Positions 8,136 through 52,056 of a stretch of DNA of 64,000 nucleotides are shown here, in pieces (position 1 is the stretch's first letter; each line of letters begins with the position of its first letter). Below the pieces are notes generated by a model. It did not search any database and had not been told where the DNA came from. It saw nothing but the letters and a program-made list of their open reading frames with translations. The position numbers and the translations under genes were made by a program. The stretch covers positions 103,943 through 167,942 of the forward strand of contig CAVRJJ010000005.1 in assembly GCA_963721685.1 (NCBI GenBank). The letters run 5' to 3'. This DNA comes from an uncultured bacterium (GTDB lineage: Bacteria; Patescibacteriota; Saccharimonadia; UBA4664; SCTI01).

Positions 8136-8186
8136 TTACCCATTTTATCAGATAAGATTAGATTGAGTGAAAGAAGCGGCAGATGT

Positions 8187-8224
8187 GCATCAAATTTGCC
8201 ACTAAAGTGATGCAAATTTGATGC
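8187..8224. promoter_or_regulatory. perfect 13-bp inverted repeat GCATCAAATTTGC (12-nt spacer) GCAAATTTGATGC plus a third TTGATGC half-site
   Basis: Read directly in the intergenic region between rpoD end and coaE-like start; half-site TGCATCAAAT also forms the unit of the 11-bp tandem repeat at 33988-34129. Confidence 0.4.
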
Positions 8225-8317
8225 TATATTGATGCCAACTTTGGCCAACCTATATTACGTGTTGCAAAAGCCGTTGCTTCATTTTCATCTTCATCACGAC
8301 TCAGTCGGCCGAAAACC

Positions 8318-9427
8318 TTAAGCCAGGTAGTCTTTCAGCTTCTTGCTCTCACGGTGGCGGCGCAGCTTCATCAAAGCTTTAGCTTCAATTTGGCGGATGC
8401 GCTCACGGGTAACCCCAAACTCCAAGCCAACTTCTTCAAGGGTATGACTTTTGCCATCCTCGAGACCAAAACGCATACGTAAAATTTTCTGTTCACGTGG
8501 TGTTAGTAGGCTCAGAACACTAGCCACCTGTTCTTTAAGCAGTTGATTGGCAGCCACTTCCGGTGGTGTCGGCCGGTCTTCATCTTCAATAAATTCACTT
8601 AAGGTTGAATCTTTATCATCACCAACGGTGGAATCAAGCGATACAATATCCTGCTTGATCTTTAAGATATGGTTGACCTTTTCAACCTCAATCTCCATCT
8701 CCACGGCAATCTCTTCCGGTAAGGGTTCGCGGCCCAGCTCCTGGACTAAGCGGCGTTGGGTGCGGATCAACTTATTTATGGTCTCAACCATATGCACCGG
8801 GATACGAATGGTTCGGGCCTGGTCGGCAATGGCGCGGGTAATAGCCTGGCGAATCCACCACGTGGCGTAGGTTGAAAATTTAAATCCTTTAGTATAATCG
8901 AACTTCTCAACAGCCCGTAGCAAACCGCTGGAACCTTCTTGAATTAGGTCAAGCAGGTCAAGGCCGCGGCCAATGTATTTCTTGGCAATTGAAACGACCA
9001 GGCGGAGGTTTGCTTCAACCATCTTGTCTTTGGCAGCCTTATCGCCCTTGGCAATGCGTTTGGCAAGTTCAACCTCTTCCAGCGCGGTTAGGAGGGGAAC
9101 CCGGCCAATTTCGCGCAGGTACAAGCGCACTGAGTCATCAGCGATATCTTTAACATAATCGTCGCTTTCCTTGGGGGAGGCTTCATCTTCTTCCTCCCCT
9201 TCCCAAATCAAGCGGTCTTTTTGGTCGGTTAATTCTACCCCGGCCTCCATAAGTCCGGCGTACAGTTCATCAAGCTCCTCCAGGTTGTCTTCCGCGTCGG
9301 GAATAACCTGGGAAACCTCTTGCTGGGTAACAAACCCCTGTTCTTTGCCTTTTTGTAATAATCTTTCGACTGCTGGGGAATAATGATGTTCCCGCTCTTC
9401 AGTAATCGGTGCAGCTTTTTTGGCCAA
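8318..9427 (-). CDS. rpoD: RNA polymerase sigma factor, sigma-70 family (primary)
   Basis: Regions 2-4 motifs: [50 protein letters not shown] and C-terminal [24 protein letters not shown]. Confidence 0.9.
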
Positions 9428-9437
9428 AAAATTCTCC

Positions 9438-11219
9438 TTAATCGTCTTCGGTTATAAGTGTTTGGTACTGGGCCAATAGGCGCTTAGCCAAATCAGCGTC
9501 GCCTTTATCCTCAGCCTCGCGTAACTTGTGGCTGAGCTTGGTCTTCGTATCTTTGTTCGTAACTATTCGCAGACGTCCTGCCAGTTGAAATGCTTCAAAA
9601 CTGCGTTCTGCGGGAGCGAATGAGCTAAATTCTTCCTCGCCCCGTAGTGCAAGTATTTTTACATAATCAGCGGCACTTGGCAAGCCAGCGGCCACGTCGC
9701 TTGCAGGGGCTCGGGCTAGTTGCTGCAGCATGTCTAGGATAGCCTGGTGATCCGGGTCGGCAAAATGGGCTAATGTTAGATCGTCAAGGCTGCTGCGGAC
9801 TTCAGGAAATGCCAAATTGATAGCCAGGACCGATTCCTCGAGCAACCGGCGAGCGGTTTTTGATGCCGGTTTGATGATGGTAACCGCTGGACGCTGGCTG
9901 CTTATAAGATCTGTGGTTCCGGTTTCAGCTTTCTTGATTTTCTCCCGAACTGACTCTTGGCTGATTTCAAGTTTCTGGGTTAGGCGCTCAATATAATGCC
10001 CTTGCTCAACCGGATCCGCAAGCCGCTGCAAGCTTGCAGCTACACGTTCGCCATATTGACGCTTACCCGTGATGGTAGAAAGTTCATATACCTCCTCCGC
10101 TTGAGCGAACAAATAATCGAGCACATATTCGGCATCCCCGATCGCTTTTTGCCACGCCTGAACATCTTTTTGGATCAAGTCATCAGGATCTTTGCCTTGG
10201 GGAAGCCGAACCATTGAAAGGGTTAATCCCAGCTTTTGGCTGAGCTCGATGGCCCGTTCAGTCGCGCGTAATCCAGCGGCGTCGGCATCAAAGCAAATTT
10301 TAATGTTCTTGGTCAGGCGGCCAAGAGCCTTAAGCTGATCAAGCGTAAAGGCGGTGCCGCTGACCGCCACAACTTGCTTCACACCCACTTGGTGGCTAGC
10401 CACGACATCCATGTTGCCCTCCACAATAACCACCTCGTCATGCTCGCGAATGGCTGCCTTTGCTAGATGGAGACCAAAAATAATCCGGCTTTTATCATAA
10501 AGGTCGGTTTGGGGCGTATTAAGATATTTCGGCATTTGGTCGTCATCAAGTACCCGACCGGTAAAGCCCACGGGAGCGCCCGCGGCGTCGCAAATGGTGA
10601 ACATCAGGCGTCCACGGTAAAGGTCATAAATAGTGGAGCTACCGCTTTTTTGCCCAACTAAGCCGGCTTTAATAAGCTCGAGCGGACTAAAACCTTTTTT
10701 TAGCAGGAACTGGCCCAGTGCATTCCAGTCGTCCGGCGCGTAGCCAATTTGAAAATCAATAACCGTCTGCTTTTTAAGGTGGCGTTGCTTAGTGGCGTAT
10801 TCTAGTGCCGAGCGATTTTTGACTAGTGATGCCTGAAAATATCTAACAGCCCATTCCAGGGCTTCACGCGAGCGCTTCTGTACCTGTTTCGCTTCAGCAC
10901 TGGCTGGAGTGCGTTCTTTCAGCTCAATCCCGGCTTTGCGGGCCAGCAATCCCAACGCGTCACGAAACTCCAGGCCTTCGTACTGCATAACAAAAGTAAT
11001 TATGTCGCCGCCGGCGTTACAGCCGAAACAATGCCAAATCCCCTTTTCCGGGCTAACCATAAAGCTTGCCGATTTTTCCTGGTGGAAGGGACAGGGCGCT
11101 TTAAGGTTGCGCCCCGCTTGTTTTAACGGAATATAGCCGCCAATAACTTCCGCCACATCTAAGCGTTCTTTGACCTGCTCCACGTCGTTCATAGGAGTAT
11201 TATACCAGTAAACGAACAA
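9438..11219 (-). CDS. dnaG: DNA primase
   Basis: Zinc-finger [31 protein letters not shown] region ([17 protein letters not shown]). Confidence 0.9.
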
Positions 11220-21620: not shown

Positions 21621-21651
21621 GTCTGGTGGAGGCACCGGGAATCGAACCCGG
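21621..21651. repeat. 31-bp direct repeat copy 1 (tRNA 3' end: gtctggtggaggcaccgggaatcgaacccgg)
   Basis: 29/31 identical to 22598-22628; corresponds to T-arm plus acceptor 3' strand of the tRNA-like gene. Confidence 0.8.
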
Positions 21652-21695
21652 CCGACCCGAGTCGCGATCAGGTCACGACGCCAGTCTGTACCCCC
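21624..21695 (-). tRNA. tRNA-like element, degenerate or noncanonical (good acceptor/T-arm/CCA, no canonical D/anticodon arms in 72 nt); probable integration-site remnant
   Basis: Reverse complement GGGGGTA...CCGGGTTCGATTCCCGGTGCCTCCACCA; middle 31 nt cannot be folded into standard D plus anticodon arms; 10-bp complement between flanks tgtctggtgg/ccaccagaca. Confidence 0.35.
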
Positions 21696-21807: not shown

Positions 21808-21833
21808 GACCCGAGTCGCAATCAGGATCGCAC
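21808..21833. repeat. internal partial copy of tRNA-like body (gacccgagtcgcaatcaggatcgcac vs 21655-21680)
   Basis: 22/26 match read directly. Confidence 0.6.
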
Positions 21834-21852
21834 GGCATCAGCCATACACACG

Positions 21853-26264: not shown

Positions 26265-26739
26265 AGTCGACATGGTGGCGGGCCGAAGCCCGCCACCGGT
26301 CGAGTTGAAGGGCTAGATGCCCGGTTGCGGGTCACTCCACTTGCTGTATCGCTGGCCGACGATGCGGTACTCGATGACTCCGTTCACATACACCGGCTTC
26401 TTCTCGACGTAGTAGACGCAGTCCAGCGTCGTGATCTTCCAGCGCTGCCAGTCGACGCGCTTGCAGGCCCCGTAAGGCACATTCGTGGCGTTTGAAACGC
26501 CCCATGCCTGGACGACTGCATCTTGAGCTTCAAGGCATGTCGGCATCGCGGGGTGATCGATCTTGGCCGCGATGTTGAAGAACACCGCAGTCGGACTCGG
26601 AGACCAACAGGGGTTCCAGTCTGGGTCGCACTCGCCCCTTGTTCCGTAGTCGTTGTAGTCAGGTTGCACCTGGCTGACCGGCGTGCTCGCACCAGCCACT
26701 GGCCACGGCGAGTTAATCGGTTGCGCGTCGTAGTAGTAG
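26265..26739. repeat. 475-bp block nucleotide-identical to 27881-28355 (3' gene ends plus 3' hairpin); second identical block 26792-26873 = 28408-28489
   Basis: Direct base-by-base comparison; mosaic identity. Confidence 0.9.
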
Positions 26740-27602
26740 TCGACATAGGTTGCCGCCCCATCATCAAGATCCATGATCTTGATTTGGGCCCGCTGCTGTA
26801 CGGGGCCCCGCCCGTAGGTGTCCAGCGCCGGGTCATAGGCGTTGGGGTAGTGGTAGTAGATCGGGAACGGCGTCGAACCTTGGAGTTGGAAATCCTGGTA
26901 GTAGCCGTCGCCAGAGTGAATCCGAATCCGCCGACCCACACCATTGTCTGTGTTGGCCGTCCGCGGGACGTTGATGATCAACTCTGCCCGAATGAGCTTG
27001 TTCGAAGTACCCGTCGGGTGAGTCAATCCACTAGTCGTCGATTCCGTGTGGCTCCTTGTTGAAAACGAGGAAGACACAAGCTTGTCTTCCTTTGCCACGT
27101 AATACCCGCCTTGGAAGGAATCGATTACAGTCGATCTCGTATACGGAGACGTCGGTACAGGAGCCAAAGCCGAGGTTTGGCTCCCCCCGTATTGCGAAAC
27201 GTATGGAGCGCTGGCATTTGCGCGTGCGCGCGACTCAGCAGTGGAACTTCCTGGAGCTCCAAGCATGCCTTGTCCCGCTGCTTCTACTGCGCGACGGGCT
27301 GTGTCACCCCGAATTGACTGCTTTGAAGGGCAAGCCGATCCAGTTGTTTTGATGACGGTGATGACCCACTTGGTGCCGTCCCACTGAGCACGCAGGTAGA
27401 CATAAACGTCGCATTGCTGCCCGCTCGAGCAGAAGATGAGCTTCGTGGTTGGCGTAGCCGGATTTGCCGAGACAATGCAGTAGTGCGGCAAGCCCGTCAC
27501 CGGGTCCGGAATGTGGAAGGCGGCACTCGCTGGCGACGGCGCAACTGCCATTGCCACGGACACTACGATGGCGGCTGCCAACGTAGTAAATAGTCTTTGC
27601 AT
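26313..27602 (-). CDS. secreted Cys-rich hypothetical protein, paralog A (signal peptide MQRLFTTLAAAIVVSVAMAVAPSPASA)
   Basis: 429 aa; C-terminal 190 aa identical to paralog B; 6 Cys in last 90 aa. Confidence 0.6.
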   Translation of the reverse strand: MQRLFTTLAAAIVVSVAMAVAPSPASAAFHIPDPVTGLPHYCIVSANPATPTTKLIFCSSGQQCDVYVYLRAQWDGTKWVITVIKTTGSACPSKQSIRGDTARRAVEAAGQGMLGAPGSSTAESRARANASAPYVSQYGGSQTSALAPVPTSPYTRSTVIDSFQGGYYVAKEDKLVSSSFSTRSHTESTTSGLTHPTGTSNKLIRAELIINVPRTANTDNGVGRRIRIHSGDGYYQDFQLQGSTPFPIYYHYPNAYDPALDTYGRGPVQQRAQIKIMDLDDGAATYVDYYYDAQPINSPWPVAGASTPVSQVQPDYNDYGTRGECDPDWNPCWSPSPTAVFFNIAAKIDHPAMPTCLEAQDAVVQAWGVSNATNVPYGACKRVDWQRWKITTLDCVYYVEKKPVYVNGVIEYRIVGQRYSKWSDPQPGI

Positions 27603-27928: not shown

Positions 27929-29254
27929 CTAGATGCCCGGTTGCGGGTCACTCCACTTGCTGTATCGCTGGCCGACGATGCGGTACTCGATGACTCCGTT
28001 CACATACACCGGCTTCTTCTCGACGTAGTAGACGCAGTCCAGCGTCGTGATCTTCCAGCGCTGCCAGTCGACGCGCTTGCAGGCCCCGTAAGGCACATTC
28101 GTGGCGTTTGAAACGCCCCATGCCTGGACGACTGCATCTTGAGCTTCAAGGCATGTCGGCATCGCGGGGTGATCGATCTTGGCCGCGATGTTGAAGAACA
28201 CCGCAGTCGGACTCGGAGACCAACAGGGGTTCCAGTCTGGGTCGCACTCGCCCCTTGTTCCGTAGTCGTTGTAGTCAGGTTGCACCTGGCTGACCGGCGT
28301 GCTCGCACCAGCCACTGGCCACGGCGAGTTAATCGGTTGCGCGTCGTAGTAGTAGAACGCGTAGGACACGCTCCTGTCGTCGAGATCCTCAATCTTCAGA
28401 ACCGCATGCTGCTGTACGGGGCCCCGCCCGTAGGTGTCCAGCGCCGGGTCATAGGCGTTGGGGTAGTGGTAGTAGATCGGGAACGGCGTGGTGGTCGATA
28501 TGAACATGTCCACGTGCGAGCCGTCGCCGGCGGAGATCCTGATGCGCCGGCCGTTGATGTTGGTACGCGGCACATTGACTACGAGCCCCGCCTCCATCAC
28601 CTTGTTCGAAGTACCCGTCGGCTGCTTGAGCACAGCGGTCTCGGCGTGATTTCTTGGCGTGATCCCGCCCGTTGATCCGCCCTTTGCCCGGATGGTTCCA
28701 CCGTCGAAACTTTCGATAGCGGTGAACGGCCGTGCATATGGCGCCGGGGGTGTCTGGCTGGTCGACCATGTCGGATTTGAAGCGGTCAGATATGGGGCCG
28801 TCCCCTTCGCCCTTGCAGACGCCGCCGGCCCCCAGCCTGGCGGCGGAGGATTCGCTCCACCGGGATCACCCAACATCCCCTTGCCAGCCTGTTCGACGGC
28901 TCGCTTTCCCTTGGCCGCGCGTTGCGCTCGCCTGGCCGGGGTCGCACCTACCGCCGTCGATTCCGTCACGACCCACTTGCCGTTGATGAACTCAGCGCGC
29001 ATCCAGATGGAGACGCTGCTGCGCGTCCCGTCGACGCAGTGCACAACGGCTACGCGCGGCCCTTCGCCCCGATCGATGACGACGCAGGTCAACTCCTCTC
29101 CCGTTTCCGGGTCGGTGATGATGTAGGCCTCAATCCCTTCGCCACCGGGAATGAAGATGGGGCCGTTCGCGCTTGCTGGTGACGGCGAGAACGCCATGGC
29201 CAGCATCGCGGCAACGGTTACGCATAGAGCCATCCGACGTTTTCTCATTTTCAT
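27929..29254 (-). CDS. secreted Cys-rich hypothetical protein, paralog B (true start MKMRKRRMALCVTVAAMLAMAF at 29254; track ORF over-extended to 29449)
   Basis: gggagcattctc-ATG RBS; signal peptide; conserved blocks TGTSNK..VNVPRT, TPFPIYYHYPNAYDPALDTYGRGPVQQ shared with A. Confidence 0.6.
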   Translation of the reverse strand: MKMRKRRMALCVTVAAMLAMAFSPSPASANGPIFIPGGEGIEAYIITDPETGEELTCVVIDRGEGPRVAVVHCVDGTRSSVSIWMRAEFINGKWVVTESTAVGATPARRAQRAAKGKRAVEQAGKGMLGDPGGANPPPPGWGPAASARAKGTAPYLTASNPTWSTSQTPPAPYARPFTAIESFDGGTIRAKGGSTGGITPRNHAETAVLKQPTGTSNKVMEAGLVVNVPRTNINGRRIRISAGDGSHVDMFISTTTPFPIYYHYPNAYDPALDTYGRGPVQQHAVLKIEDLDDRSVSYAFYYYDAQPINSPWPVAGASTPVSQVQPDYNDYGTRGECDPDWNPCWSPSPTAVFFNIAAKIDHPAMPTCLEAQDAVVQAWGVSNATNVPYGACKRVDWQRWKITTLDCVYYVEKKPVYVNGVIEYRIVGQRYSKWSDPQPGI

Positions 29255-29312
29255 GAGAATGCTCCCTTGGTTGCTGGTAACAGTGTATGGTGAATCTTTA
29301 TCGACCTCAGGT

Positions 29313-29423
29313 CCACTGCGTAACCCGAGCAAAAAACCACCAAAAAAGTATGGTGGACTTGTGCCCCGGGTTACGCCCGGTAAATTTATGTGTCCTAACC
29401 TGTCAAAGAAACTAGTCGTAATT
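29313..29423 (-). promoter_or_regulatory. cassette 5' element copy D (imperfect hairpin gcgtaacccgagcaaaaaaccacca / tggtggacttgtgccccgggttacgc, then CCTGTCAAAGAAA)
   Basis: Upstream of paralog B start. Confidence 0.5.
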
Positions 29424-29558
29424 AGAGAAAAAGCTCTAATTGCGGCCACATGGTATTAGATTCTATAATGAATTTTTAATTTGTCAATATATGTTCAGCC
29501 AGCAGAAAGAGCCTACTATAGCTCTTTCTGCTCAATATCAATTATCCTGTTCTGAGCT

Positions 29559-41044: not shown

Positions 41045-41134
41045 TGGCGGAGAGGGTGGGATTCGAACCCACGATACCGTTGCCGGTATACCGCTTTTCG
41101 AGAGCGGCGCCTTCAACCACTCGGCCACCTCTCC
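41045..41134 (-). tRNA. tRNA-Ser (anticodon CGA)
   Basis: Manual fold: anticodon loop CTCGAAA, long variable arm, T-loop GGTTCGAATCC, CCA. Confidence 0.85.
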
Positions 41135-41209: not shown

Positions 41210-42271
41210 CTAATGCTTGGACGACTCCACGTGCTGGCGAATCATCTCAACAGCCTCAGGCGCGGGTTCCCCCGTGACAAAATCAATTTTAGAATACGGT
41301 ATTTGAACCATATAACCCCTCAATGGGCGTTTAATTTGGCGTGAATAGCTATTTACCTTAGCCCTGAACTGGTTAAGGGATTTCTCAGTCTGCGTACTAA
41401 AATGGCTAGCTTGGCCGTTCTCATCGAGCGTCACACCGGGAAATCCAATGGTGTCGGTTTCATAAACCGCCATTTCACCATCTCGCGTGCCTTTTACTTG
41501 CACAACCTCATCATCGGCCCCCCAAAGATCAATTGCATTAAAAGCATCCTCTTTTGGATGAGACCAGTGTGGATTACCTCCTATTTGAGCAAACGCTTTA
41601 TAGGTGGCGACTTGACTGACAACCGAGCGGCGCAGGGCTGGCATGGTTCGAACATTGCCGGTATGCCCAGCCAGCCGTTCAGCGGTGCTCCAGAACTTTT
41701 CTAAATATTCTTTATCGCCAGATTGAAGCTCAACGAAATGTGAGATAAGGAACTGGAACTGAGTAATCTCTTGTACCAGCCGCTTGGCTTCGTCTCGATC
41801 GCCGCGCTCCCTAGCGTCATATAATTGGGCGTTAGCAGCAAAAAAATCTTGAAGTCCAAACATTACTTCCACCGCCTCAAGCTGATCGGGGTAGTCCATC
41901 TCGTAAAGTCCCTTCTGTCTAGCGGTTTCGGCCAGGTCTCCGGCGGCGAGCACCTCAAACAGCTCCTTTTGACGCTCCCAGGCGGCCTGAAGCTGCTCGG
42001 AAGGAGAGTGCTTACGAGCTAAAACCTCAGCGCGAGCTCTTTTATCGCCATAGTTGAAACCAAATTTTTCCTCCCACCATTCCTCGAGGGCCTGTCTTGC
42101 GACTGCACTCTCCTCATCAGATAAGGGAAGACCTTCCATTCGGCGATAAAGAAGCTCTTGGACCCTACTATCAAACAAAGCCATATCTTGGATCAACTCA
42201 ACACGCTCATAGGCTTTTGTTGACTGAGGTTCACGTTCGTCTTCCGTAAAAATCGGGGTTTGAAGCTCCAT
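41210..42271 (-). CDS. hypothetical protein (353 aa)
   Basis: ORF with coding-like composition; no motif recognised. Confidence 0.35.
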   Translation of the reverse strand: MELQTPIFTEDEREPQSTKAYERVELIQDMALFDSRVQELLYRRMEGLPLSDEESAVARQALEEWWEEKFGFNYGDKRARAEVLARKHSPSEQLQAAWERQKELFEVLAAGDLAETARQKGLYEMDYPDQLEAVEVMFGLQDFFAANAQLYDARERGDRDEAKRLVQEITQFQFLISHFVELQSGDKEYLEKFWSTAERLAGHTGNVRTMPALRRSVVSQVATYKAFAQIGGNPHWSHPKEDAFNAIDLWGADDEVVQVKGTRDGEMAVYETDTIGFPGVTLDENGQASHFSTQTEKSLNQFRAKVNSYSRQIKRPLRGYMVQIPYSKIDFVTGEPAPEAVEMIRQHVESSKH

Positions 42272-42385
42272 GATCTGATAATATCATGATGTAGAGAAGG
42301 TTCAGCACGATGGCTGAAACTTAAACCGCTTTATTGCCATACAGCTGATCACTTTAGGCAAATAGCTTGCTTGATTATTGCGTGA

Positions 42386-42452: not shown

Positions 42453-43064
42453 CTAGCAGCCGAGTGGCTTCAGTGCCGCTTCCGGCAGCGTATCCACGAG
42501 GTCTGCGAGGTGGCCCAGGTTGACCGGCTCCCTCAGCTGGTTGAAAGGACAGATCAGGACGAGCCCGATCTCGGTCTGCCGGTAGATGCACTCGTAGCAG
42601 ACCAGCCCATGGAACATGGCCAGCATCGCTGCGAGTTGCAGCATGGTGCCCACGTTGAAATCGGAGGTCGCGTACCTGCAGTTGTCCGTGAGTCCACCGA
42701 CGGTGACCAGCATCTCGTTGAGATCGAGGAACCCGCCGGAAACGTGCCTGTAGAGCAGCATGCTCCCGGAGCGAGGAACGCAGACGATCGCGTCCCCGAC
42801 CATCGGAGGCGAGACCACGGCGCGCGGCACGGTGTAGTCAGCTTGAACTCGCACCCGTGGCTGATGCCGCCGGGTGTGGTTCCTCATCAGCGTCAGGATG
42901 CCGACGGAGCCGAGCAAGGCGATCGTGGAGCCGAGGGGCATCCACTTCGGACCCTCGACCCAGCCACTGAGGTAGGCGGAGGTAATGATCGCGGACAAAC
43001 CTACGGCGATCAAAAAGAACGGCCACATGGGGCCGGTGTACGAAACCCTACTTGAAATCGACAT
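42453..43064 (-). CDS. high-GC membrane protein with C-terminal Cys-rich region, hypothetical (start MSISSRVSY, GGAGGA RBS)
   Basis: RBS plus ATG at 43064; 2 TM helices. Confidence 0.4.
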   Translation of the reverse strand: MSISSRVSYTGPMWPFFLIAVGLSAIITSAYLSGWVEGPKWMPLGSTIALLGSVGILTLMRNHTRRHQPRVRVQADYTVPRAVVSPPMVGDAIVCVPRSGSMLLYRHVSGGFLDLNEMLVTVGGLTDNCRYATSDFNVGTMLQLAAMLAMFHGLVCYECIYRQTEIGLVLICPFNQLREPVNLGHLADLVDTLPEAALKPLGC

Positions 43065-43180
43065 TGATGCTATCCTCCAGGTTGGGGTAGGCCCTATCGC
43101 TAGGGGGCTGACATCAGTCAACACATTGCAGATAATAATACCATATTTATACTAATATAGCAAATTTTGATATTTGAAAT

Positions 43181-43245
43181 AAGCATAAGTCCTATGGTGC
43201 AGCACACTGGCTGAGGTTAGAACCATTTTATTATCGTATGGCGTA
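43181..43245. repeat. tRNA-Arg-derived att-like repeat R1 (aagcataagtcctatggtgcagcacactggctgaggttagaacc...)
   Basis: Shares aagcataag..ctatggtgc with the 3' flank/end of tRNA-Arg (46234-46253) and a degenerate T-arm. Confidence 0.8.
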
Positions 43246-43258
43246 GGTTGGAGCCCAA

Positions 43259-43684
43259 CTAAGACTTTTTTATCCTGAGCGGGTTAACTAATTTGAGCCC
43301 CTCAATATGCTGAAAATCATCCTTATTTGCAGTCCATAGCGCAACATCATGCTCAAGAACCGTAGCCGCTATGATCGAGTCACCTAAGCTCATGCGTCTG
43401 GCCTGGCGGAGTTTAATTGCTCGATCAACGATTGCGTCAGTAAGCGCAAGGCTATACGACTCCCCAAAGAGAGCATCAAGCAGTAGCAGCTCATTGGCAG
43501 GAATTCGGGCGTAGCCAAGCGCTTCAATTTTTGTGATGCTGGCGTGAGCTATGTCAGTTTCTGCAATAACATGGCGATCGAGCGTACCGTTTGAAAGATA
43601 AATAAATATATTGGTGTCGAGAATGATCACCAGAATTACTCTCTTCCTGGTAGAGAACGATCCGCACGATTCGTGCGCTGCCAT
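43259..43684 (-). CDS. vapC: PIN-domain toxin VapC
   Basis: ILDTNIFIYL...TANKDDF PIN acidic residues. Confidence 0.75.
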   Translation of the reverse strand: MAAHESCGSFSTRKRVILVIILDTNIFIYLSNGTLDRHVIAETDIAHASITKIEALGYARIPANELLLLDALFGESYSLALTDAIVDRAIKLRQARRMSLGDSIIAATVLEHDVALWTANKDDFQHIEGLKLVNPLRIKKS

Positions 43685-43899
43685 GCAGCCGGGTCATGTA
43701 TGTCTGTATAAGCTCCAATTTCTTGCAGTTGCTTCAGTAGTTCTTGTATCCGCTTTCGATCCTGTATTGATTCCGAAGTTGGTAATGCAATAATGGCTTT
43801 TTGCCCTAACTCCAACTGCGCGTCCTCTACGTACTTTTTCGGTACGCGAAGGGCATAGGAATTACCAGTTTTAATAACGGTTGCAGTGTAATTACGCAT
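43636..43899 (-). CDS. vapB: AbrB/MazE (SpoVT-AbrB) antitoxin VapB
   Basis: MRNYTATVIKTGNSYALRVPKKYV swapped-hairpin motif; overlaps vapC. Confidence 0.7.
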   Translation of the reverse strand: MRNYTATVIKTGNSYALRVPKKYVEDAQLELGQKAIIALPTSESIQDRKRIQELLKQLQEIGAYTDIHDPAAWQRTNRADRSLPGRE

Positions 43900-43965
43900 T
43901 GTAACTACAATTATACTTACAACGCTATAAGCGTCAAGTCACATTTTGTACTGATAATGGAAAAT

Positions 43966-44020
43966 AAGCATAAGCCCTATGGTGCAGCACGTTGGCTGAA
44001 GTTAGAACCATTTTATGTGG
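43966..44020. repeat. att-like repeat R2
   Basis: aagcataagccctatggtgcagcacgttggctgaagttagaaccattttat. Confidence 0.8.
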
Positions 44021-44051
44021 TTAACCTGATGGGTGTTGACGAAATTGATGG

Positions 44052-44273
44052 TTACGCCCAAAACTCTTGGGCACCAAGGTTCGACTGCTGTATAATATTC
44101 CTCAAAGTACCGGGTAAGATATCCCGACTGTGGAATGGAACCACAACGATAGCTTTAGTATCTGGGCGATGATAAATGCGGTGACTGCCGGTTTGGCGTT
44201 TCAGCAGAAATCCTTTACCAAGCAGCACTTTCTCGAGTTCTTTTGGCGTGTACGAGCGGCTCTGCTTCGGCAT
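44052..44273 (-). CDS. hicA: HicA mRNA-interferase toxin
   Basis: GSHRIYHRPD...VVVPFHSRDILPGTLRNIIQQ. Confidence 0.75.
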   Translation of the reverse strand: MPKQSRSYTPKELEKVLLGKGFLLKRQTGSHRIYHRPDTKAIVVVPFHSRDILPGTLRNIIQQSNLGAQEFWA

Positions 44274-44286
44274 ACTTGAGTACTAC

Positions 44287-44553
44287 TTACAGCCTAGCCG
44301 GAGAGCCAAAAGCAATTTTCCTGGTCGTGATGTAGTAGTCATCTGCATCTGGCCGAGGTAATGGTTCCCCAAGTTCAACCAGCGTTTCCAGGTAAAGTTT
44401 GATGGCTTGCTCCATGTTGGTGACAGCTGTATCAATTGTTGCACCAAAATCGGACAAACCTAAAGAGGGTGCATAGGCTACATAGACAGTTTTGCCATCC
44501 TGCTGCTCTTGCTCGACGATAATTCTATAGTTAGATACTGTAGTTTTCATATG
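44287..44553 (-). CDS. hicB: HicB antitoxin (start MKTTVSNYRII; track ORF over-extended into repeat R3)
   Basis: UPF0150-like: YAPSLGLSDFGATIDTAVTNMEQAIKLYLETL. Confidence 0.65.
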   Translation of the reverse strand, partial: HMKTTVSNYRIIVEQEQQDGKTVYVAYAPSLGLSDFGATIDTAVTNMEQAIKLYLETLVELGEPLPRPDADDYYITTRKIAFGSPARL

Positions 44554-44617
44554 ACCAATTATATCATGTTCACCGACGCAATTATCTGTTGAAGTTGGCA
44601 GTCTCCACAGAAAGAAT

Positions 44618-44675
44618 AAGCATAAGCTTAATGGTGCGACACACTGGCTGCGGTTAGAACCTTTTATTATCGTAT
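44618..44675. repeat. att-like repeat R3
   Basis: aagcataagcttaatggtgcgacacactggctgcggttagaaccttttattatcgtatagc. Confidence 0.8.
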
Positions 44676-44818
44676 AGCAAATCATATCAGGCAAATGGGA
44701 TTGGAAGAAATTAGAACTTTCAATGGTGGAAGCCTATAGATTTTCGAGCTTTTGCCTAGACGTGCAGGCGCCCCGCTGGGCGAGGTGCCTGCGGGGCGCT
44801 AGTTGGACCTCTTGCTCT

Positions 44819-45355
44819 TTATGCGAACCCAGGTTCGGGAACGACGCTCGAGGAGCCGGGACGGCCGGTGACACGCATCTCGCGCATCCCCTTCCGTGCG
44901 CCCTCAAGCCACAGCCACTCGTTCGTTCCACCGTGGACGCAGATCAGGTGCCCGTGCTCGGGACATCCGAGGAGGTTGAGGGACTCGTGATCGATCCAGT
45001 CAACGTTCTCCATGCAGGTCGGGCAGACGATCTGGAGGTTGACCCACCCCTGCTTCCTGGTTGGGTTGTAGGTGACCTCAACCAGGTTGCCGGGACCGTG
45101 AACCTGCATGTAGCCCCGGGGAAGGGTCGTGGTGTAGCCACGCACCTCCCAGGGAGCCAGACTCGGGTACTTGGGCTTGTCAATGCCCTTGACCTCGAGA
45201 TGGATGTCACCTCCGCATGCCAGGGGGAAGCAGAGGTTGCGCAAGCCATGCGCTCCCGCCGGATGCTGATCGAAGAGGTTCAGGACGAAGTCCCACTTGG
45301 ACGGTCCCTTGCCGGTTTCCAGCGAAATGGGCAGAATGTAAGCCAATTGACTCAC
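44819..45355 (-). CDS. high-GC hypothetical protein with Cys/His clusters (CPTC...CPEHGHLIC)
   Basis: ORF only; start uncertain. Confidence 0.3.
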   Translation of the reverse strand: MSQLAYILPISLETGKGPSKWDFVLNLFDQHPAGAHGLRNLCFPLACGGDIHLEVKGIDKPKYPSLAPWEVRGYTTTLPRGYMQVHGPGNLVEVTYNPTRKQGWVNLQIVCPTCMENVDWIDHESLNLLGCPEHGHLICVHGGTNEWLWLEGARKGMREMRVTGRPGSSSVVPEPGFA

Positions 45356-45486
45356 CCTTCTATGGTTCGTACCTCGAGAGTGCGAGGAAACACGTTGCGC
45401 CGAAGCACCACCTAAGCCAGTTGACCCAGGAATAGGGAATATTATATCATGTATGTCTTAATAAGTCCAGGATTAAGATTGTAAAA

Positions 45487-45548
45487 AAGCATAAGCCCTA
45501 TGGTGCAGCACGCTGGCTGAGGTTAGAAGCATTTTAGTGTCGTATAGT
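45487..45548. repeat. att-like repeat R4
   Basis: aagcataagccctatggtgcagcacgctggctgaggttagaagcattttagtgtcgtatag. Confidence 0.8.
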
Positions 45549-45718
45549 GGTGCGGTAGCGGCAAATGGATAGTCCAGCCCGGATGAAAAGAACCTAAACG
45601 CGTTAAAGCCCCACTGGGCTTACATGTGTAGCTCCCAATGGGGCTGTTTGGACAGGCAGGTGGCGTAATATGCCATTTGAACTCGCCAACTGCGAGCCTG
45701 CCTTACTGAAGACGACGG

Positions 45719-46105
45719 TTACTTCCGTGCCCCGATGTGGTGCAGACGCTCTTTCTTGAGCTCCTGGATGCCCAAGTCGGTGTCCCAGATCCTGCTCAGC
45801 AGGGTGTGAAGGACGCTGTCGGCGAAGGCCACGAAGGAGTCCCACGACATATCGTCGTAGGGGGTCTTCACGGTCCAGGTGATGCCCTCTGCCTCCAGCT
45901 GAATCAGAACCATCATCGCAGCGCCATCGGTGGGAGTGATCTCCTCGATGGCCTTGTGGATGGCCTTGTCGAGGTCGTCCACGTTCCATGCTTCGGGGGT
46001 GGCGTGATCGGCGTTGTACCACGCGAAGGCGCGGATGCCGAGGAGTTCGAGAGTCTGGGACTCCCTGAGCTTGTCAATGGGGTCGGGATCGCATGTGAGC
46101 GACAT
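45719..46105 (-). CDS. high-GC hypothetical protein (start MSLTCDPDPIDKL, GGAG RBS)
   Basis: RBS plus ATG 46105. Confidence 0.35.
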   Translation of the reverse strand: MSLTCDPDPIDKLRESQTLELLGIRAFAWYNADHATPEAWNVDDLDKAIHKAIEEITPTDGAAMMVLIQLEAEGITWTVKTPYDDMSWDSFVAFADSVLHTLLSRIWDTDLGIQELKKERLHHIGARK

Positions 46106-46247
46106 CTGATCTCCAGAGGTTCGAAAGGGTTGCTTGACCTTCAGCGTCAACAATAATAACATATAGAGCATGATAAGTCAATGGCAGATTATGTGCGACG
46201 GTCATCGTCGAGGTATGAATAGGATGAAAGAATAAGCATAAGTGCTA

Positions 46248-46324
46248 TGGTGCGCCCGGCAGGATTCGAACCTGCGACCTCCAGTACCGCAAACTGACGC
46301 TCTATCCAGCTGAGCTACGGGCGC
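46248..46324 (-). tRNA. tRNA-Arg (anticodon reads GCG)
   Basis: Manual cloverleaf: GCGCCCG acceptor, D GCTC/GAGC, anticodon loop TTGCGGT, T-loop TTCGAAT, discriminator A, CCA. Confidence 0.8.
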
Positions 46325-47343: not shown

Positions 47344-47949
47344 TTAATCCCGGGCAGCCACCGCCCCATAAGCTACTGTGGCGCCCGCTGCCCGCAGCAC
47401 TTGAGCGCACTCACTGAGCGTGGCTCCTGTTGTTAAAACGTCATCAATAAGCAGCACCCGTATTTCCTGCAAATTGCCCTTAGCGCCGAACGCGCCTTTA
47501 ATATGCTCGGCACGCTGGCGCCGCGACTTTCCAACTTGCTGGTTAGCGCGGGCACGGTATAGCAAGCGGCGATAGGGGAGTAGTAACTCACGAGCTAACT
47601 GTTTGGCAATAAGTTCCGCTTGGTTGTAACCTCGCTGACGAAAACGCGAAGTTACCACCGGAACTGCCGTCACCGCGTCTAACTCAAAACGCTTAGGCTC
47701 AAAATAGGGGAGAAGGGCATGAGCAAAAATGGTTGCCGCTTCACGCTGATGCTTGTACTTTAAACGCTTAACAAGTTCGCGCAGCGTTGTTTGGTAAGGC
47801 CCGGCAGCCACGATTTCTGGCACACCAGGGCATGATGCCTGGACCAGCTGAAAAACATCTTCCCAGCAGTTCTGGCAAACCAGGCTTCCTTCATAGTCGC
47901 AGCGCGCACAACATGGCGGCGCCAACAACCTTGCAAGTTGCTGTAGCAT
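47344..47949 (-). CDS. comFC: ComF-family phosphoribosyltransferase (competence protein ComFC-like)
   Basis: N-terminal 4-Cys zinc finger CCARCDYEGSLVCQNCW; PRT motif VLLIDDVLTTGATL. Confidence 0.7.
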   Translation of the reverse strand: MLQQLARLLAPPCCARCDYEGSLVCQNCWEDVFQLVQASCPGVPEIVAAGPYQTTLRELVKRLKYKHQREAATIFAHALLPYFEPKRFELDAVTAVPVVTSRFRQRGYNQAELIAKQLARELLLPYRRLLYRARANQQVGKSRRQRAEHIKGAFGAKGNLQEIRVLLIDDVLTTGATLSECAQVLRAAGATVAYGAVAARD

Positions 47950-48620: not shown

Positions 48621-49046
48621 TTATTCGCCGGCACCGGGAGCAAGCGACGAAGTAACGAAGTTTACTATGGCGTAGGCCAAAATCGCGACGATAATGCCAA
48701 TCACCGAATAGAGAATGGTATCTTTGGCTGAAGAAACATGTTCTTTATTACCCTGGGAAATAACGTAGCGCAAGCCACCGATAATCAACATGATAACGGC
48801 CACGGCACCCACTAGGAAAATGAGAATGTTGGCAATGGTGTGGAAGATACCACCGGCGCCAAACAAGTCGCCGCTGGTGCCTTTTGCTTGGGAACATTGG
48901 GCTCCGGCGTTAATAGGGTTCTCGGCAGAAGCCGGATCACTGCAGGTCTCTCCGGTAGTTTCACCGGCCAAGATCGCTGAGGGCAGAAAGCCGGCGGCAA
49001 CAATGCTGACCTTGAGCACCCTGTCGTTTAGAAGTAGTTTATTCAC
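48621..49046 (-). CDS. T4SS VirB2/TrbC-like pilin paralog P1
   Basis: Signal peptide, Cys-containing variable region, TM1 IANILIFLVGAVAVIMLIIGGLRYVISQG, loop, AKDTILYSVIGIIVAILAYAIVNFV TM2. Confidence 0.6.
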   Translation of the reverse strand: MNKLLLNDRVLKVSIVAAGFLPSAILAGETTGETCSDPASAENPINAGAQCSQAKGTSGDLFGAGGIFHTIANILIFLVGAVAVIMLIIGGLRYVISQGNKEHVSSAKDTILYSVIGIIVAILAYAIVNFVTSSLAPGAGE

Positions 49047-49119
49047 AATTTAATTTCCTTTTAAGTTGTTACGCTTATTTTGGTGCAATATTATCATAGT
49101 TTAATCCAGATGGCTACCA

Positions 49120-49518
49120 TCAAGGCTCGCGGGGCGGCGGGGGAGCCAAAGCTCCGGATACAAAATTAACGATCGCGTAGGCTAAAATCGCGACCACAAT
49201 CCCAATAATGCTATACAGCAGGGTGTCTTTAGCGGACTTAACTTGGGCCGCGTCGCCTTGGGAAATAACGTAACGCAATCCGCCAATGATCAGCATGATC
49301 ACGGCCACGGCACCCACCAGGAAAATAAGCAGGTTCGCGATTTGGGAAAAACTTCCCTGTAGGTCGCCCGAAACGCCAGCGGGTTTTGCATCCCTGGCAC
49401 CTTCGTCAATTTTTGTTACCGCCAGGGCCGATTGCGAGAGGGAAAGGCAAAAAAGCCCGGCCAAGAGTATTTTTTGCTTATACCGATTAATCATTAATCC
49501 TCCTTTATTACCCAACAT
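49120..49518 (-). CDS. T4SS pilin-like paralog P2
   Basis: Same architecture; GGLRYVISQGD...AKDTLLYSIIGIVVAILAYAIVNFV. Confidence 0.6.
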   Translation of the reverse strand: MLGNKGGLMINRYKQKILLAGLFCLSLSQSALAVTKIDEGARDAKPAGVSGDLQGSFSQIANLLIFLVGAVAVIMLIIGGLRYVISQGDAAQVKSAKDTLLYSIIGIVVAILAYAIVNFVSGALAPPPPREP

Positions 49519-49906
49519 TTTGACTCACAAACCGGACAATCGCGTAAGCCAAAACCACGACAATCAAACCGATAACGGCGTAAAGCAGCGTGTCTTTGGC
49601 GGCTTTAATCCTAGCCGCGTCGCCGGTTGAAGTAACGTAGCGAATGCCCGCTAAAATAATAATTATTACGGCAATGGCTCCGGCTACCAGCAGCAAGGTA
49701 TTGGTCACGTCTCCAAGAAAACCATTGTCACCGGTAAGTTCCTTTTGCCCGGTAATGTTGCATTTGCCATTAACAATGGTGCCGCCGGCTCCTTTGCACA
49801 GATTAATTTCTGTGGTTGTTGGAGGTGGAGGCGGCGGAGCTCCTGCAAAGGAAGCCCGCGACACGCCAAGCCAAAGCCCTGCCAGCAATAGCCCAATCCG
49901 TTGCAT
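49508..49906 (-). CDS. T4SS pilin-like paralog P3
   Basis: AGIRYVTSTGD...AKDTLLYAVIGLIVVVLAYAIV; poly-Pro after signal peptide. Confidence 0.6.
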   Translation of the reverse strand: MQRIGLLLAGLWLGVSRASFAGAPPPPPPTTTEINLCKGAGGTIVNGKCNITGQKELTGDNGFLGDVTNTLLLVAGAIAVIIIILAGIRYVTSTGDAARIKAAKDTLLYAVIGLIVVVLAYAIVRFVSQNVG

Positions 49907-50265
49907 TAAGCTATCTTCCCCACTACGAAGCCCACAATGGCCCGCGCCAAAATCACCACGATCAACCCGATAACCGCATAAAGGATGGTGTCTTTAGCGG
50001 CTTGGATGCGTTTGGCATCCCCCGTTGAGGTTATATAACGGATGCCGCCCATGATTAAAATCAGAACCGCGATGGCGCCCACCACAATGAATAGCGTATC
50101 TATTACCACATTGAGCTTTGTTGTAAGGGCGGTATCGCTGCAGGCCGCCGAACCCGCCACCGCTTTCAGCCCCTCGCATTGCTGGCTAGCGGCAAGGGCG
50201 CCTTGCGGGACAATCATAAGAATAAAAAGTCCGAGCCGCGTAAGTTTTTGCCGAATTGCTAACAC
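49906..50265 (-). CDS. T4SS pilin-like paralog P4
   Basis: GGIRYITSTGD...AKDTILYAVIGLIVVIL. Confidence 0.6.
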   Translation of the reverse strand: MLAIRQKLTRLGLFILMIVPQGALAASQQCEGLKAVAGSAACSDTALTTKLNVVIDTLFIVVGAIAVLILIMGGIRYITSTGDAKRIQAAKDTILYAVIGLIVVILARAIVGFVVGKIA

Positions 50266-50266
50266 C

Positions 50267-50677
50267 CTAGCCTCCTGCCGCGTGAATAATAAATGCCGAA
50301 ATCGGTACTGCCAGAAAGGTGACGATCAACCCGATAATAGCATAGAGCAGGGTATTCTTAGCGCTTTCTATACGAGTGGGGTCACCGGTTGAAGTGATAT
50401 AACGCACACCTCCCATAATGACAAAGATGAAGGAAACAATGCCAGCCGCGAACAAGAAAATATTTAAGAACACTTGGAAGTAGGTGAGCCCATCAGGGTC
50501 GCCATTGCTATCAAGCTTTTGGCCATCCGCGTCGCAGCCGCTCATGGCGGGAAGGGCGTCGCAAGCTTTCCCCACAATAGACGATGGCTTGCTGGCTGCC
50601 ACGGCAGGGGAGCTAGCGAAAATAAAACCACTTACCAACACTGTAAGAATAAGCATAAGATGTTTCATTGATTGCAT
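50267..50677 (-). CDS. T4SS pilin-like paralog P5
   Basis: GGVRYITSTGD...AKNTLLYAIIGLIVTFL. Confidence 0.6.
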   Translation of the reverse strand: MQSMKHLMLILTVLVSGFIFASSPAVAASKPSSIVGKACDALPAMSGCDADGQKLDSNGDPDGLTYFQVFLNIFLFAAGIVSFIFVIMGGVRYITSTGDPTRIESAKNTLLYAIIGLIVTFLAVPISAFIIHAAGG

Positions 50678-50710
50678 TGTAACTAAAACACCAGATAGGT
50701 GTCAAAAAGG

Positions 50711-51088
50711 CTAAGGGCTTTTAGCAATAATAAACCCAACAATAAAAGGAGCGAGCACCGACAGCAAAAGGCCAATCGAAGCGTAGATTAGCGTTTGTTT
50801 GGCTCCCTCAACCCGTTGGGCATTGCCGCTGGAAGCCGCGTAGCGTATGCCACCCAGGACCAGGAAAATTACCGACAGCACACCGGCAATCAGCGAAAGG
50901 GTATTAATAGCCCCCTTAGCTATATCGCTTGCCTTTACATTGGGAACATCAAGTTCGCTGGGGTCGTTGGCCAAACACCCGCTGGGGGGGCACTTAGCGT
51001 CGGGATCGGGAGCATCGGCAAAAGCCATTCCTCCCGCCAAAGTCAGGGAAACAAAGCCGCACATAAGCATAATAAAAAAGCGTTTCAT
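50711..51088 (-). CDS. T4SS pilin-like paralog P6
   Basis: GGIRYAASSGN...AKQTLIYASIGLLLSVL. Confidence 0.55.
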   Translation of the reverse strand: MKRFFIMLMCGFVSLTLAGGMAFADAPDPDAKCPPSGCLANDPSELDVPNVKASDIAKGAINTLSLIAGVLSVIFLVLGGIRYAASSGNAQRVEGAKQTLIYASIGLLLSVLAPFIVGFIIAKSP

Positions 51089-51402
51089 TCCAAACCTCTG
51101 GCGAGGAACTCAATTATTAAATAGGCTCCGGCGGATAACATAATTCCCACTACCGCGTGAATAAGTCCGGTTTTAGCCGCGGCGGTTTTGGCCGGTTCGC
51201 CCTGCGAAACAATGTAGAGAATACTGGCATAAATCACATAAATAACCGCCAAAATACCTATCAGCATGAGGAGGATTTCAACAACATTTGCTAAAATAAT
51301 GACGATTTGCTTAATACTGGTGAACTTAAGCTCCCCGGAACCATCCCGAGGGATGCCTTTATAGAGGTTGGGAAAGATATCGGCTAAGAGATGGGTATAC
51401 AT
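51085..51402 (-). CDS. pilin-like paralog P7, lacks signal peptide/Cys region (degenerate)
   Basis: ILYIVSQGEPAKTAAAKTGLIHAVVGIMLSAGAYLII core retained. Confidence 0.4.
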   Translation of the reverse strand: MYTHLLADIFPNLYKGIPRDGSGELKFTSIKQIVIILANVVEILLMLIGILAVIYVIYASILYIVSQGEPAKTAAAKTGLIHAVVGIMLSAGAYLIIEFLARGLE

Positions 51403-52056
51403 TTAAGAACTCGTAAACAGTTTAACATCCGGCGGCAGGATCATTTGAATCAGCCCGAACATAATTACAAACAAGACAAGGCCGGTAATTGCCCCTTTTA
51501 TCCGCTCTTTAGCTTCTTTGGCAATTTCAGGGTCATCGCCGGAAATAACGTACTGCAGCCCGGCAATCACCAGCACCAGCACAAGAATTACCCCAAAGAT
51601 TCCGGTTAAAAATTGCACGCCATATGCCACCAGAGCGAAAATCGGATTTTGGTCGCCGCCGCCGATGCAGCCGCCGGTTCCCAGGGCCTTGCTTACCTTA
51701 ACCCCTTTGCCGGTACAACCGCCGGCGCTGGGGTTGGCCGCCCGGTCGTTGCGACCGCTTTCAGCCCCTTTATCGTACGACTTGTTGCAGGATGTAAGCT
51801 TTGCCCCACGTAAACTGGAGGGCTTACACAGCGCGCTCTTGCTAACACCCCCCTCGGTGTAACCACCTACGAATGCCTTTTTGCACTGCGTTTCACTTAC
51901 CTTGGTTGAAGTGGGGGCGTTGGGGTAACTTCGGCAAAAGTCATTGGCCTGTTCGGTTTTGGAGGCTGGCGCGGCCGAAGCCGTTTCGGTAACCAGAACC
52001 CCGGGAACTCCCAAGGTCATAACCAGCACCATAAGCTGCAGAAGATAACGTTTCAT
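51403..52056 (-). CDS. pilin-like paralog P8 with long Cys/Gly-rich extracellular region
   Basis: Signal peptide, 8 Cys, AGLQYVISGDDPEIAKEAKERIKGAITGLVLFVIMF. Confidence 0.5.
   Translation of the reverse strand: MKRYLLQLMVLVMTLGVPGVLVTETASAAPASKTEQANDFCRSYPNAPTSTKVSETQCKKAFVGGYTEGGVSKSALCKPSSLRGAKLTSCNKSYDKGAESGRNDRAANPSAGGCTGKGVKVSKALGTGGCIGGGDQNPIFALVAYGVQFLTGIFGVILVLVLVIAGLQYVISGDDPEIAKEAKERIKGAITGLVLFVIMFGLIQMILPPDVKLFTSS

Follow-up and report, generated by a model that had tools for sequence, protein, structure and literature searches.

What assembles a row of small, unrelated genes directly behind a single tRNA gene is the question raised by a 64,000-nucleotide stretch of DNA (hereafter the window) from an uncultured bacterium of the Saccharimonadia (GenBank assembly GCA_963721685.1, contig CAVRJJ010000005.1, positions 103,943 to 167,942). 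Short direct repeats follow the gene for tRNA-Arg(GCG) and separate toxin-antitoxin (TA) pairs and orphan genes from one another. We propose that this is a gene-cassette array, probably assembled by a recombinase that acts in trans and targets the extreme 3' end of tRNA-Arg(GCG) for site-specific recombination. Serial site-specific insertion at this tRNA end was the core of the original prediction for this DNA, and both the breakpoints and the variation of the locus described below support it. All array features lie on the minus strand and are described in the tRNA direction, and the related contigs and loci compared with the window are numbered L001-L041.

The tRNA-Arg(GCG) gene (46248-46324), detected by ARAGORN and with 68.2 bits to the Rfam tRNA model, is intact and ends ...GGGCGCACCA. 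This 3' end serves as the proximal point of insertion for the array and, by analogy, may play the role of an attI or attB site. The 3' flank of the gene (46231-46247, minus strand TAGCACTTATGCTTATT) marks the left end of cassette 5 and contains a motif that also stands after every repeat, with the junction ...GCACCA-TAGnnCTTATGCTTATT occurring at the tRNA end and then four more times, in R4 (45538 to 45478), R3 (44669 to 44609), R2 (44017 to 43957) and R1 (43232 to 43172, extents including the motif after GCACCA). Within these repeats, the conserved blocks match the 38-nt consensus at 36/38 positions in R4 (45501-45538, ending ...GTGCTGCACCA), 30/38 in R3 (44632-44669, ending ...GTGTCGCACCA), 35/38 in R2 (43980-44017) and 37/38 in R1 (43195-43232). 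A repeat search confirmed the four repeats first described, recovering them as a 4-copy family of 59 nt (43172-43230, 43957-44015, 44609-44667 and 45478-45536; 73-90% identity; spacing 785, 652 and 869) with no other strong copy in the window, and a 5-copy family of 29 nt added 46226-46254, which overlaps the 3' end of tRNA-Arg(GCG). The 20-nt pattern AAGCATAAGYNCTATGGTGC had five window matches against 0.03 expected by chance, and a 32-nt inner pattern had three against 0.00. A further copy, R0 (42298-42335), is the most degenerate, matching 28/38 positions against a best score of 25 in 50 shuffles of the window; its ortholog is a degenerate terminal copy in L041, and R0 is the oldest copy of the array. 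Beyond R0-R4 no position in the 64-kb window scored 24/38 or more, and an nhmmer profile built from all copies matched R1-R4 only. R0-R4 all lie, co-oriented with the tRNA, between tRNA-Arg(GCG) and tRNA-Ser(CGA) (41045-41134, ARAGORN), the conserved distal boundary of the variable interval. With R0 included, the interval from tRNA-Arg to R0 consists of five cassettes (C5-C1), and the earlier count of four must be raised to at least five.

In being short, multi-copy and non-coding, these repeats resemble a dispersed element of the repetitive extragenic palindrome or miniature inverted-repeat type that happened to lie near a tRNA gene. Over the sequence covered here, such a coincidence is extremely unlikely, given that all five copies in 64 kb fall inside the array, that copies in related loci stand solely downstream of, and co-oriented with, a tRNA gene, and that searches of phage, plasmid and IMG/VR collections turned up no copy of the block. 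The original prediction had named dispersal of this kind as what would refute it, and it survives, with every copy, both in the window and across roughly 100 kb of related loci, placed downstream of a tRNA in the same orientation.

At the right (distal) end of each cassette stands a site of about 38 nt, the block AATAAAAT-GGTTCTAACCTCAGCCAGYGTGSTGCACCA. The repeats had been read as a copy of the 15-nt tRNA flank and the first nucleotides of the tRNA followed by a degenerate T-arm; the GCACCA (6 nt) and about 17 nt of 3' flank are indeed there, but the supposed T-arm is a separate conserved site. Upstream of GCACCA, R1-R4 depart from the tRNA and have a common sequence of their own, TATACGATAATAAAATGGTTCTAACCTCAGCCAGYGTGCT. 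What is shared with the resident tRNA amounts to the 6 nt GCACCA in the window or 9 nt, GGTGCACCA, in low-GC relatives, and upstream of this shared end the repeat differs from the T-arm and the acceptor and contains extra bases. A likeness to the tRNA 3' half is visible in GGTTCTAACC, compared with the T-arm GGTTCGAATCC, and in GTGCACCA, compared with the acceptor end. A metagenome scan with TTCTAACNNCAGCCANNGTGNNGCACCA returned 11 contigs (35-42% GC), and in these and in loci fetched through the protein encoded next to the tRNA, the block of the relatives, GGTTCTAACCTCAGCCAGCGTGGTGCACCA, was 87-97% identical to the window copies, while the neighbour protein itself (184 aa) was only 25-34% identical. 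Across 26 distinct sites, the information content was high from position -37 to 0 (AATAAAAT plus 30 nt) and near background at the first base past CCA. The interpretation of the repeats as attL/attR partial tRNA duplicates was not upheld, the block being conserved in distant Saccharibacteria with only its last 6-9 nt tRNA-like; to judge from these alignments, it is a conserved site borne by the cassettes and not a decaying tRNA duplicate.

The window copies of the block had no stable fold on either strand relative to shuffled sequences (z from -0.2 to +1.1), and the repeats had no Rfam match at gathering or E-value thresholds. Readings of the block as an attC-like site or a structured RNA were dropped for want of a hairpin and of an Rfam match. 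An inverted second arm (GGTTCTAAC...GTTAGAACC) follows the block in some relatives only (L001-type junctions; z = -2.2). In related arrays, cassette genes lie on either strand with the sites still co-oriented, and because the genes lie on either strand the block is more likely a site of DNA recombination than a 3' element of mRNAs.

Homologues of the 184-aa membrane protein encoded beside tRNA-Arg were found exclusively in metagenome-assembled genomes of Candidatus Saccharibacteria, and the order VirB2-like pilins of the type IV secretion system (T4SS), HSP20, ComF-like gene, two tRNA-Ser genes, 184-aa gene and tRNA-Arg is kept within the phylum. The block was found in about ten related lineages, solely downstream of and co-oriented with a tRNA ending ...GCACCA or, in L016, GTACCA, which there forms the end of both the repeat and the tRNA; in all other loci with the block the host tRNA ends ...GCACCA. 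Most of these tRNA genes are tRNA-Arg(GCG) (the window, L003, L007/L020/L021, L009, L016, L017/L022/L023, L024 and L037, plus L019, L038 and L041, where the copies are weak), and the block also follows tRNA-Arg(TCG) in L005 and tRNA-Tyr in L004. In the loci fetched by synteny, which together cover about 100 kb, the 10 kb preceding the tRNA were free of copies, as were IMG/VR viral contigs and, by BLAST, phage and plasmid collections; none of these three collections contained a phage or plasmid with the site next to an integrase. A strict 28-nt pattern had no match in GTDB species genomes, because the relatives there carry the one-base variants TTATAAC and GTACCA (seen in L016 and L017).

A comparison of the tRNA locus across strains, proposed with the original prediction, showed that its cassette content varies, both from one relative to another and among near-identical strains. 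The interval from tRNA-Arg to tRNA-Ser(CGA) spans 5.1 kb in the window, 510 bp in L041 (one small cassette plus the degenerate terminal copy; neighbour protein 62% identical to that of the window) and 230 bp, with no cassette, in L015 and five further samples of its lineage (L032-L036); the site is likewise empty in L014. One cassette was counted in L016, six in L020 and at least nine in L008/L009, with low-GC lineages having from two to at least nine sites. Six contigs from different samples agree at 100% identity over the stretch from the neighbour gene to the tRNA end and split exactly after ...GGGTGCACCA into three variants of the first cassette, beginning ATGTCCGAAAG... in L024 and L028, TAAATTGACAC... 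in L025, L026 and L027, and ATTTCTGAAAT... in L029.

Single cassettes were also encountered again in other company. The first segment after the tRNA in L024 corresponds to the second and third cassettes of the L009 array (L024 10655-11871 matches L009 4589-5804 with 89.7% identity over 1218 nt). This homology begins with GGTGCACCA, a sequence that forms the end of the tRNA in L024 and that of a repeat in L009. The 206-aa gene of this cassette also lies between two sites in L020, and the vapBC cassette of the window has block-bounded homologues with different neighbours in L016 and L019. Because breakpoints and re-used cassettes end at CCA, the cassettes are, as far as these comparisons reach, discrete units bounded by the CCA of the tRNA or of the block. 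In L003 and L010, contigs from sister samples that are 100% identical in two blocks, a three-cassette segment is circularly permuted: L003 has the order tRNA|flank-gene1-geneA-site-geneB-site-geneC..., and L010 has ...gene1-geneA-site-geneB-site-geneC-site|flank-gene1..., where the second block starts at GGTGCACCA. The site|flank junction of L010 would arise if the tRNA end recombined with the third site, and may lie in a circle of about 4.2 kb or in a tandem re-insertion of that circle.

Exchange of this kind might also take place with no dedicated recombinase at all, the block serving as a protein-binding or transcript-end signal and the swaps arising from natural transformation followed by homologous or microhomology recombination. 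In its favour, Saccharibacteria have genes of the competence type (in the window, a ComF-like gene at 47344-47949), the blocks would give such exchange 38-60 nt of nearly identical sequence to work on, and no recombinase was found nearby. We nonetheless hold this explanation unlikely, since homologous exchange would scatter the breakpoints, which are nucleotide-exact at CCA in three independent variants and at internal block ends. The strict direct orientation and tRNA-downstream placement, the lack of a stable fold (z of -0.2 to +1.1) and of an Rfam match, and the presence of the block beside opposite-strand genes speak against it as well. Homologous exchange after transformation may still be a contributor.

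A second route to the same picture is erosion, in which full-size integrative elements (prophages, integrative and conjugative or mobilizable elements (ICE/IME), tycheposon-like islands), each once equipped with an integrase and an attP copy of the tRNA, were reduced to one gene apiece. Insertion at a tRNA 3' end with the older material distal is the classic pattern of such islands, as in tycheposons (bioRxiv 10.1101/2020.12.28.424599), and the array is heterogeneous in composition, contains high-GC orphan open reading frames (ORFs) and adjoins a type IV secretion gene cluster. Against this stand the compactness of the units, with intact ORFs and promoter-like sites of their own, and the lack of any integrase gene or fragment in the window or in about 12 related arrays. 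Only 6-9 nt are held in common with the tRNA, and the non-tRNA block is conserved across very distant hosts, which is unlike decay; moreover, single cassettes recur at other positions with their boundaries at the block. Erosion is thus quite improbable, and of the two options in the original prediction, an integron-like array is favoured over a tandem of decayed islands.

Under the cassette explanation, each unit has, in the tRNA direction, a short left-end motif (TAGnnCTTATGCTTATT in the window), a predicted promoter of its own, a single gene or TA pair and, at its right end, the site of about 38 nt. A circular cassette with one such site would recombine with either the tRNA end or a resident site at its end, with the crossover in the last approximately 7 nt (TGCACCA). 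The tRNA would stay intact, the newcomer would be placed directly after CCA and older cassettes would be pushed distally, each keeping its 38-nt site at the distal end, and any two direct sites might excise the cassettes between them. The circular intermediates and the position of the crossover are inferred, as is recombination itself, to which the breakpoints point. Since none was found within 10 kb of about 12 arrays, the enzyme must act in trans, presumably from a gene at another place in the genome. The 3' ends of tRNA genes are typical targets of tyrosine recombinases, and for this reason, together with the inverted second arm in some relatives, which gives a two-armed core-site layout, a tyrosine recombinase is our best guess for the enzyme.

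An enzyme of a different class would be implied if the units were non-autonomous HUH/Y1 single-strand elements of the IS200/IS605 kind, inserting 3' of CACCA, ending in CACCA and so regenerating their target. Several features have this flavour: insertion is always directly 3' of ...CACCA, each unit ends in the same pentamer, one end only is strongly conserved and the orientation is strictly uniform. However, the window copies contain no significant subterminal hairpins, no TnpA-like gene was seen, and a 5-nt target predicts dispersal through the genome, whereas the copies are confined to tRNA ends, which makes this mechanism very unlikely.

Several observations weigh against site-specific cassette recombination and temper our preference for it. 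In the window ORFs covered by the Pfam scans, no recombinase domain was detected (no Phage_integrase, resolvase or other candidate), in agreement with the earlier statement that the window lacks an integrase, and the called genes up to 10 kb from 12 related loci gave no Phage_integrase or recombinase candidate. The search pattern itself partly determined which positions of the block came out as most conserved, although the sharp 3' edge and the 5' extension of the block are not products of that selection. Conservation to the right of the crossover is poor overall, which is unusual for a simple two-armed recombinase site, with a few recurrent classes of left-end motif present there. Repeat ends match the resident tRNA end imperfectly: L017 and L024 each have a single repeat with GTACCA, while their tRNA ends GCACCA. 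As to transposases, L009 carries only those of the insertion sequence DDE (rve) type; two such genes lie between tRNA-Arg and the first repeat (L009 1838-4059; also L008 197-1171). They were rejected as the cassette recombinase, as L024 has near-identical cassettes behind its tRNA but lacks these genes.

The cargo of the window cassettes was assigned from Pfam matches, start-codon checks and composition. Cassettes are compact (0.45-0.9 kb), with intact ORFs and their own promoter-like sites: sigma-70-like sites on the coding strand directly follow four of the five junctions, and at the fifth CATGATATAAT precedes hicB. By consensus scan only, the region contains 15 promoter-like sites against 5.3 +/- 2.4 in shuffles. 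Nearest the tRNA, C5 (45539-46230) combines a promoter-like site (46181-46153, TTGACT-17-TATTAT) with an orphan ORF of high GC content (128 aa, 45719-46105) that has a weak DUF465 match and whose sole database match among 5.8 billion proteins searched is the source genome itself. C4 (44670-45500) encodes a 178-aa high-GC protein of no family (44819-45355) behind a promoter-like site (45469-45441, TGGACT-17-TATAAT with a TG extension) and a leader of about 95 nt; one homologue, with 52% amino acid identity, has promoter and leader in common with it. This leader (45356-45451, CATGATATAAT...AACGTGTNTCCTCGCACTCTCGAGGT) is kept in L018 (298-400), where the C4 homologue follows an SGNH-hydrolase gene with no repeat between, and may be a regulatory element.

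The next two cassettes conform to the layout of type II TA systems (VapBC and HicAB), in which a PIN toxin has a small antitoxin upstream and HicA is paired with HicB. C3 (44018-44631) carries hicB (44287-44550) and hicA (44052-44273), matching HicA_toxin at 3.4e-19 and HicB_lk_antitox at 5.8e-06 (26.9 bits, slightly below the gathering cut-off of 27), and C2 (43233-43979) carries vapB (43636-43899) and vapC (43259-43630) behind a promoter-like site at 43937-43910 (11/12 match). The vapC product matches PIN in Pfam at 9e-07 and NCBIfam VapC models below threshold, and the AbrB-like vapB, having no family match, is named from gene order and homologous cassettes only. C1 (42336-43194) contains a promoter-like site (43163-43135) and a high-GC membrane-protein ORF (42453-43064), the gene reported earlier as lying past R1, with no homologue among 1.84 billion representative proteins. 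The earlier assignment of the cargo of the other cassettes as vapBC, hicAB and two high-GC genes is borne out, PIN, HicA and HicB by Pfam and vapB through homologous cassettes.

The three high-GC cassette ORFs have a regional GC content of 0.58-0.64 and, in C1 and C5, a third-position GC content (GC3) of 0.81, in a window of 52% GC. For the orphan cargo, PADLOC, NCBIfam, PHROGs and PDB sequence searches gave nothing useful, and at most one homologue was found in 5.8 billion proteins and 1.84 billion representatives. An origin of the high-GC cassettes in well-sampled actinobacterial hosts is unsupported, because protein searches on the scale of billions yield at most one homologue. Beyond R0, an ORF of 353 aa (41210-42271; CATGATATTAT upstream) without a family match lies between R0 and tRNA-Ser(CGA); it was probably acquired too, because it is missing from the equivalent interval in L041 and L015, and its membership of the array is uncertain. 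In relatives, the cargo includes TA pairs, small membrane or secreted proteins, alpha/beta hydrolases and, between two sites, the central-metabolism enzymes acetate kinase and phosphoketolase (low-GC Saccharibacteria: L020 13805-18620, also in L021; L002 80-3893). L019, the closest long relative of the window, has three PIN/antitoxin pairs between and beside two tRNA-Ser genes (7562-9903), and no repeat family was found in these surroundings despite the TA pairs.

Other features of the window lie outside the array. On the minus strand at 48621-52056, eight tandem small ORFs stand upstream of a TraG/VirB4-like and PrgI-like type IV secretion cluster; the last of them (51403-52056), the only one scanned, matches the Pfam family T4SS_pilin, as do the genes of syntenic relatives, and this pilin and secretion arrangement beside the array is kept in all relatives examined. 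At 21624-21695 (minus strand), ARAGORN called a 72-nt 'tRNA-Arg(gcg)' that the Rfam tRNA model does not match and that scores 25 bits, below threshold, against the transfer-messenger RNA model, as a tRNA-like domain alone, with the end ...CCTCCACCA. A partial repeat of it, about 25 nt long (GACCCGAGTCGCGATCAGG...), is found at a distance of 160 bp (21809-21835), and the pair could mark another insertion site. Two large ORFs of raised GC content beside GroEL (26313-27602 and 27929-29449, minus strand; GC3 0.68-0.71; no Pfam family) were possibly also acquired. DNA polymerase I (4743-7475, minus strand) is apparently split into four consecutive ORFs (394, 142, 170 and 214 aa), which could reflect frameshifts, a pseudogene or assembly errors.

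Bacteria of the Candidate Phyla Radiation (CPR) are host-dependent, with tiny genomes that are generally considered poor in mobile elements. As to how such bacteria gain and lose genes, a compact platform beside a type IV secretion locus, if the cassette explanation holds, would provide a concrete mechanism for strain-level variation, with a cargo that spans orphan genes, TA pairs, secreted and membrane proteins and even genes of the phosphoketolase pathway. It would also constitute a second, independent way to build an integron-like array, from a linear tRNA-derived site with no adjacent integrase. The 38-nt site offers a probe for harvesting cassettes from metagenomes and for a recombinase hunt by phylogenetic profiling, and, now that Saccharibacteria can be cultivated and transformed, could serve as a natural landing pad for genetic tools in these bacteria. 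The chances are about even that the locus represents a previously undescribed, integron-like capture platform of Saccharibacteria, defined by a tRNA ...TGCACCA insertion site, a 38-nt cassette site derived from the tRNA 3' half, a recombinase in trans and cassettes with their own promoters, and perhaps present in other CPR bacteria too; in the literature searched (full text), no description of such arrays in Saccharibacteria or the CPR was found.

Among known systems, integrons, and especially sedentary chromosomal integrons with TA cassettes, have much in common with this array: one fixed proximal insertion point, mostly single-gene units that are each followed by a recombination site in direct orientation, content that varies between strains, and TA cassettes among many orphan genes. 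Integron recombination proceeds between attI and attC or between two attC sites. The present array, in contrast, has no adjacent intI (in the window or within 10 kb at 12 loci), its units insert at a tRNA 3' end in place of attI, and its site is a linear conserved stretch of about 38 nt without the attC-type hairpin formed by R''-L''...L'-R' inverted repeats. Its cassettes have promoter-like sites of their own (by consensus scan only), whereas integron cassettes are mostly promoterless and served by the common promoter Pc, and its host is a CPR bacterium.

The nearest tRNA-island logic is that of the tycheposons of Prochlorococcus, which are integrase-bearing elements (bioRxiv 10.1101/2020.12.28.424599). 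These elements, and the accretion of cis-mobilizable elements (CIME) and ICE, resemble our array in integrating at tRNA 3' ends, leaving the tRNA intact, pushing older material inward with each newcomer, having partial tRNA-like boundary repeats and occurring in a small, streamlined host genome. They differ in being kilobases long, with their own integrase at one end and often replication genes, while array units in the window and its relatives measure 0.45-4.7 kb and have no integrase; their repeats, too, are true copies of tRNA segments, typically tens of nucleotides, against the 6-9 nt shared here. Integrative mobile elements exploiting Xer (IMEX) and the pdif modules of Acinetobacter plasmids are likewise small, often carry TA genes, have short conserved sites and lack a recombinase, the enzyme being encoded elsewhere. 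The pdif sites, however, alternate in orientation and lie on plasmids, whereas all sites in every array described here are direct, and IMEX target dif, in contrast to a tRNA end with about 38 nt conserved on one side of the crossover. The arrangement ...GCACCA-6 nt-TTATGCTTATT may bear a loose likeness, by eye, to the 28-bp, 11-6-11 XerC/XerD site of the dif consensus, which we take as a lead only.

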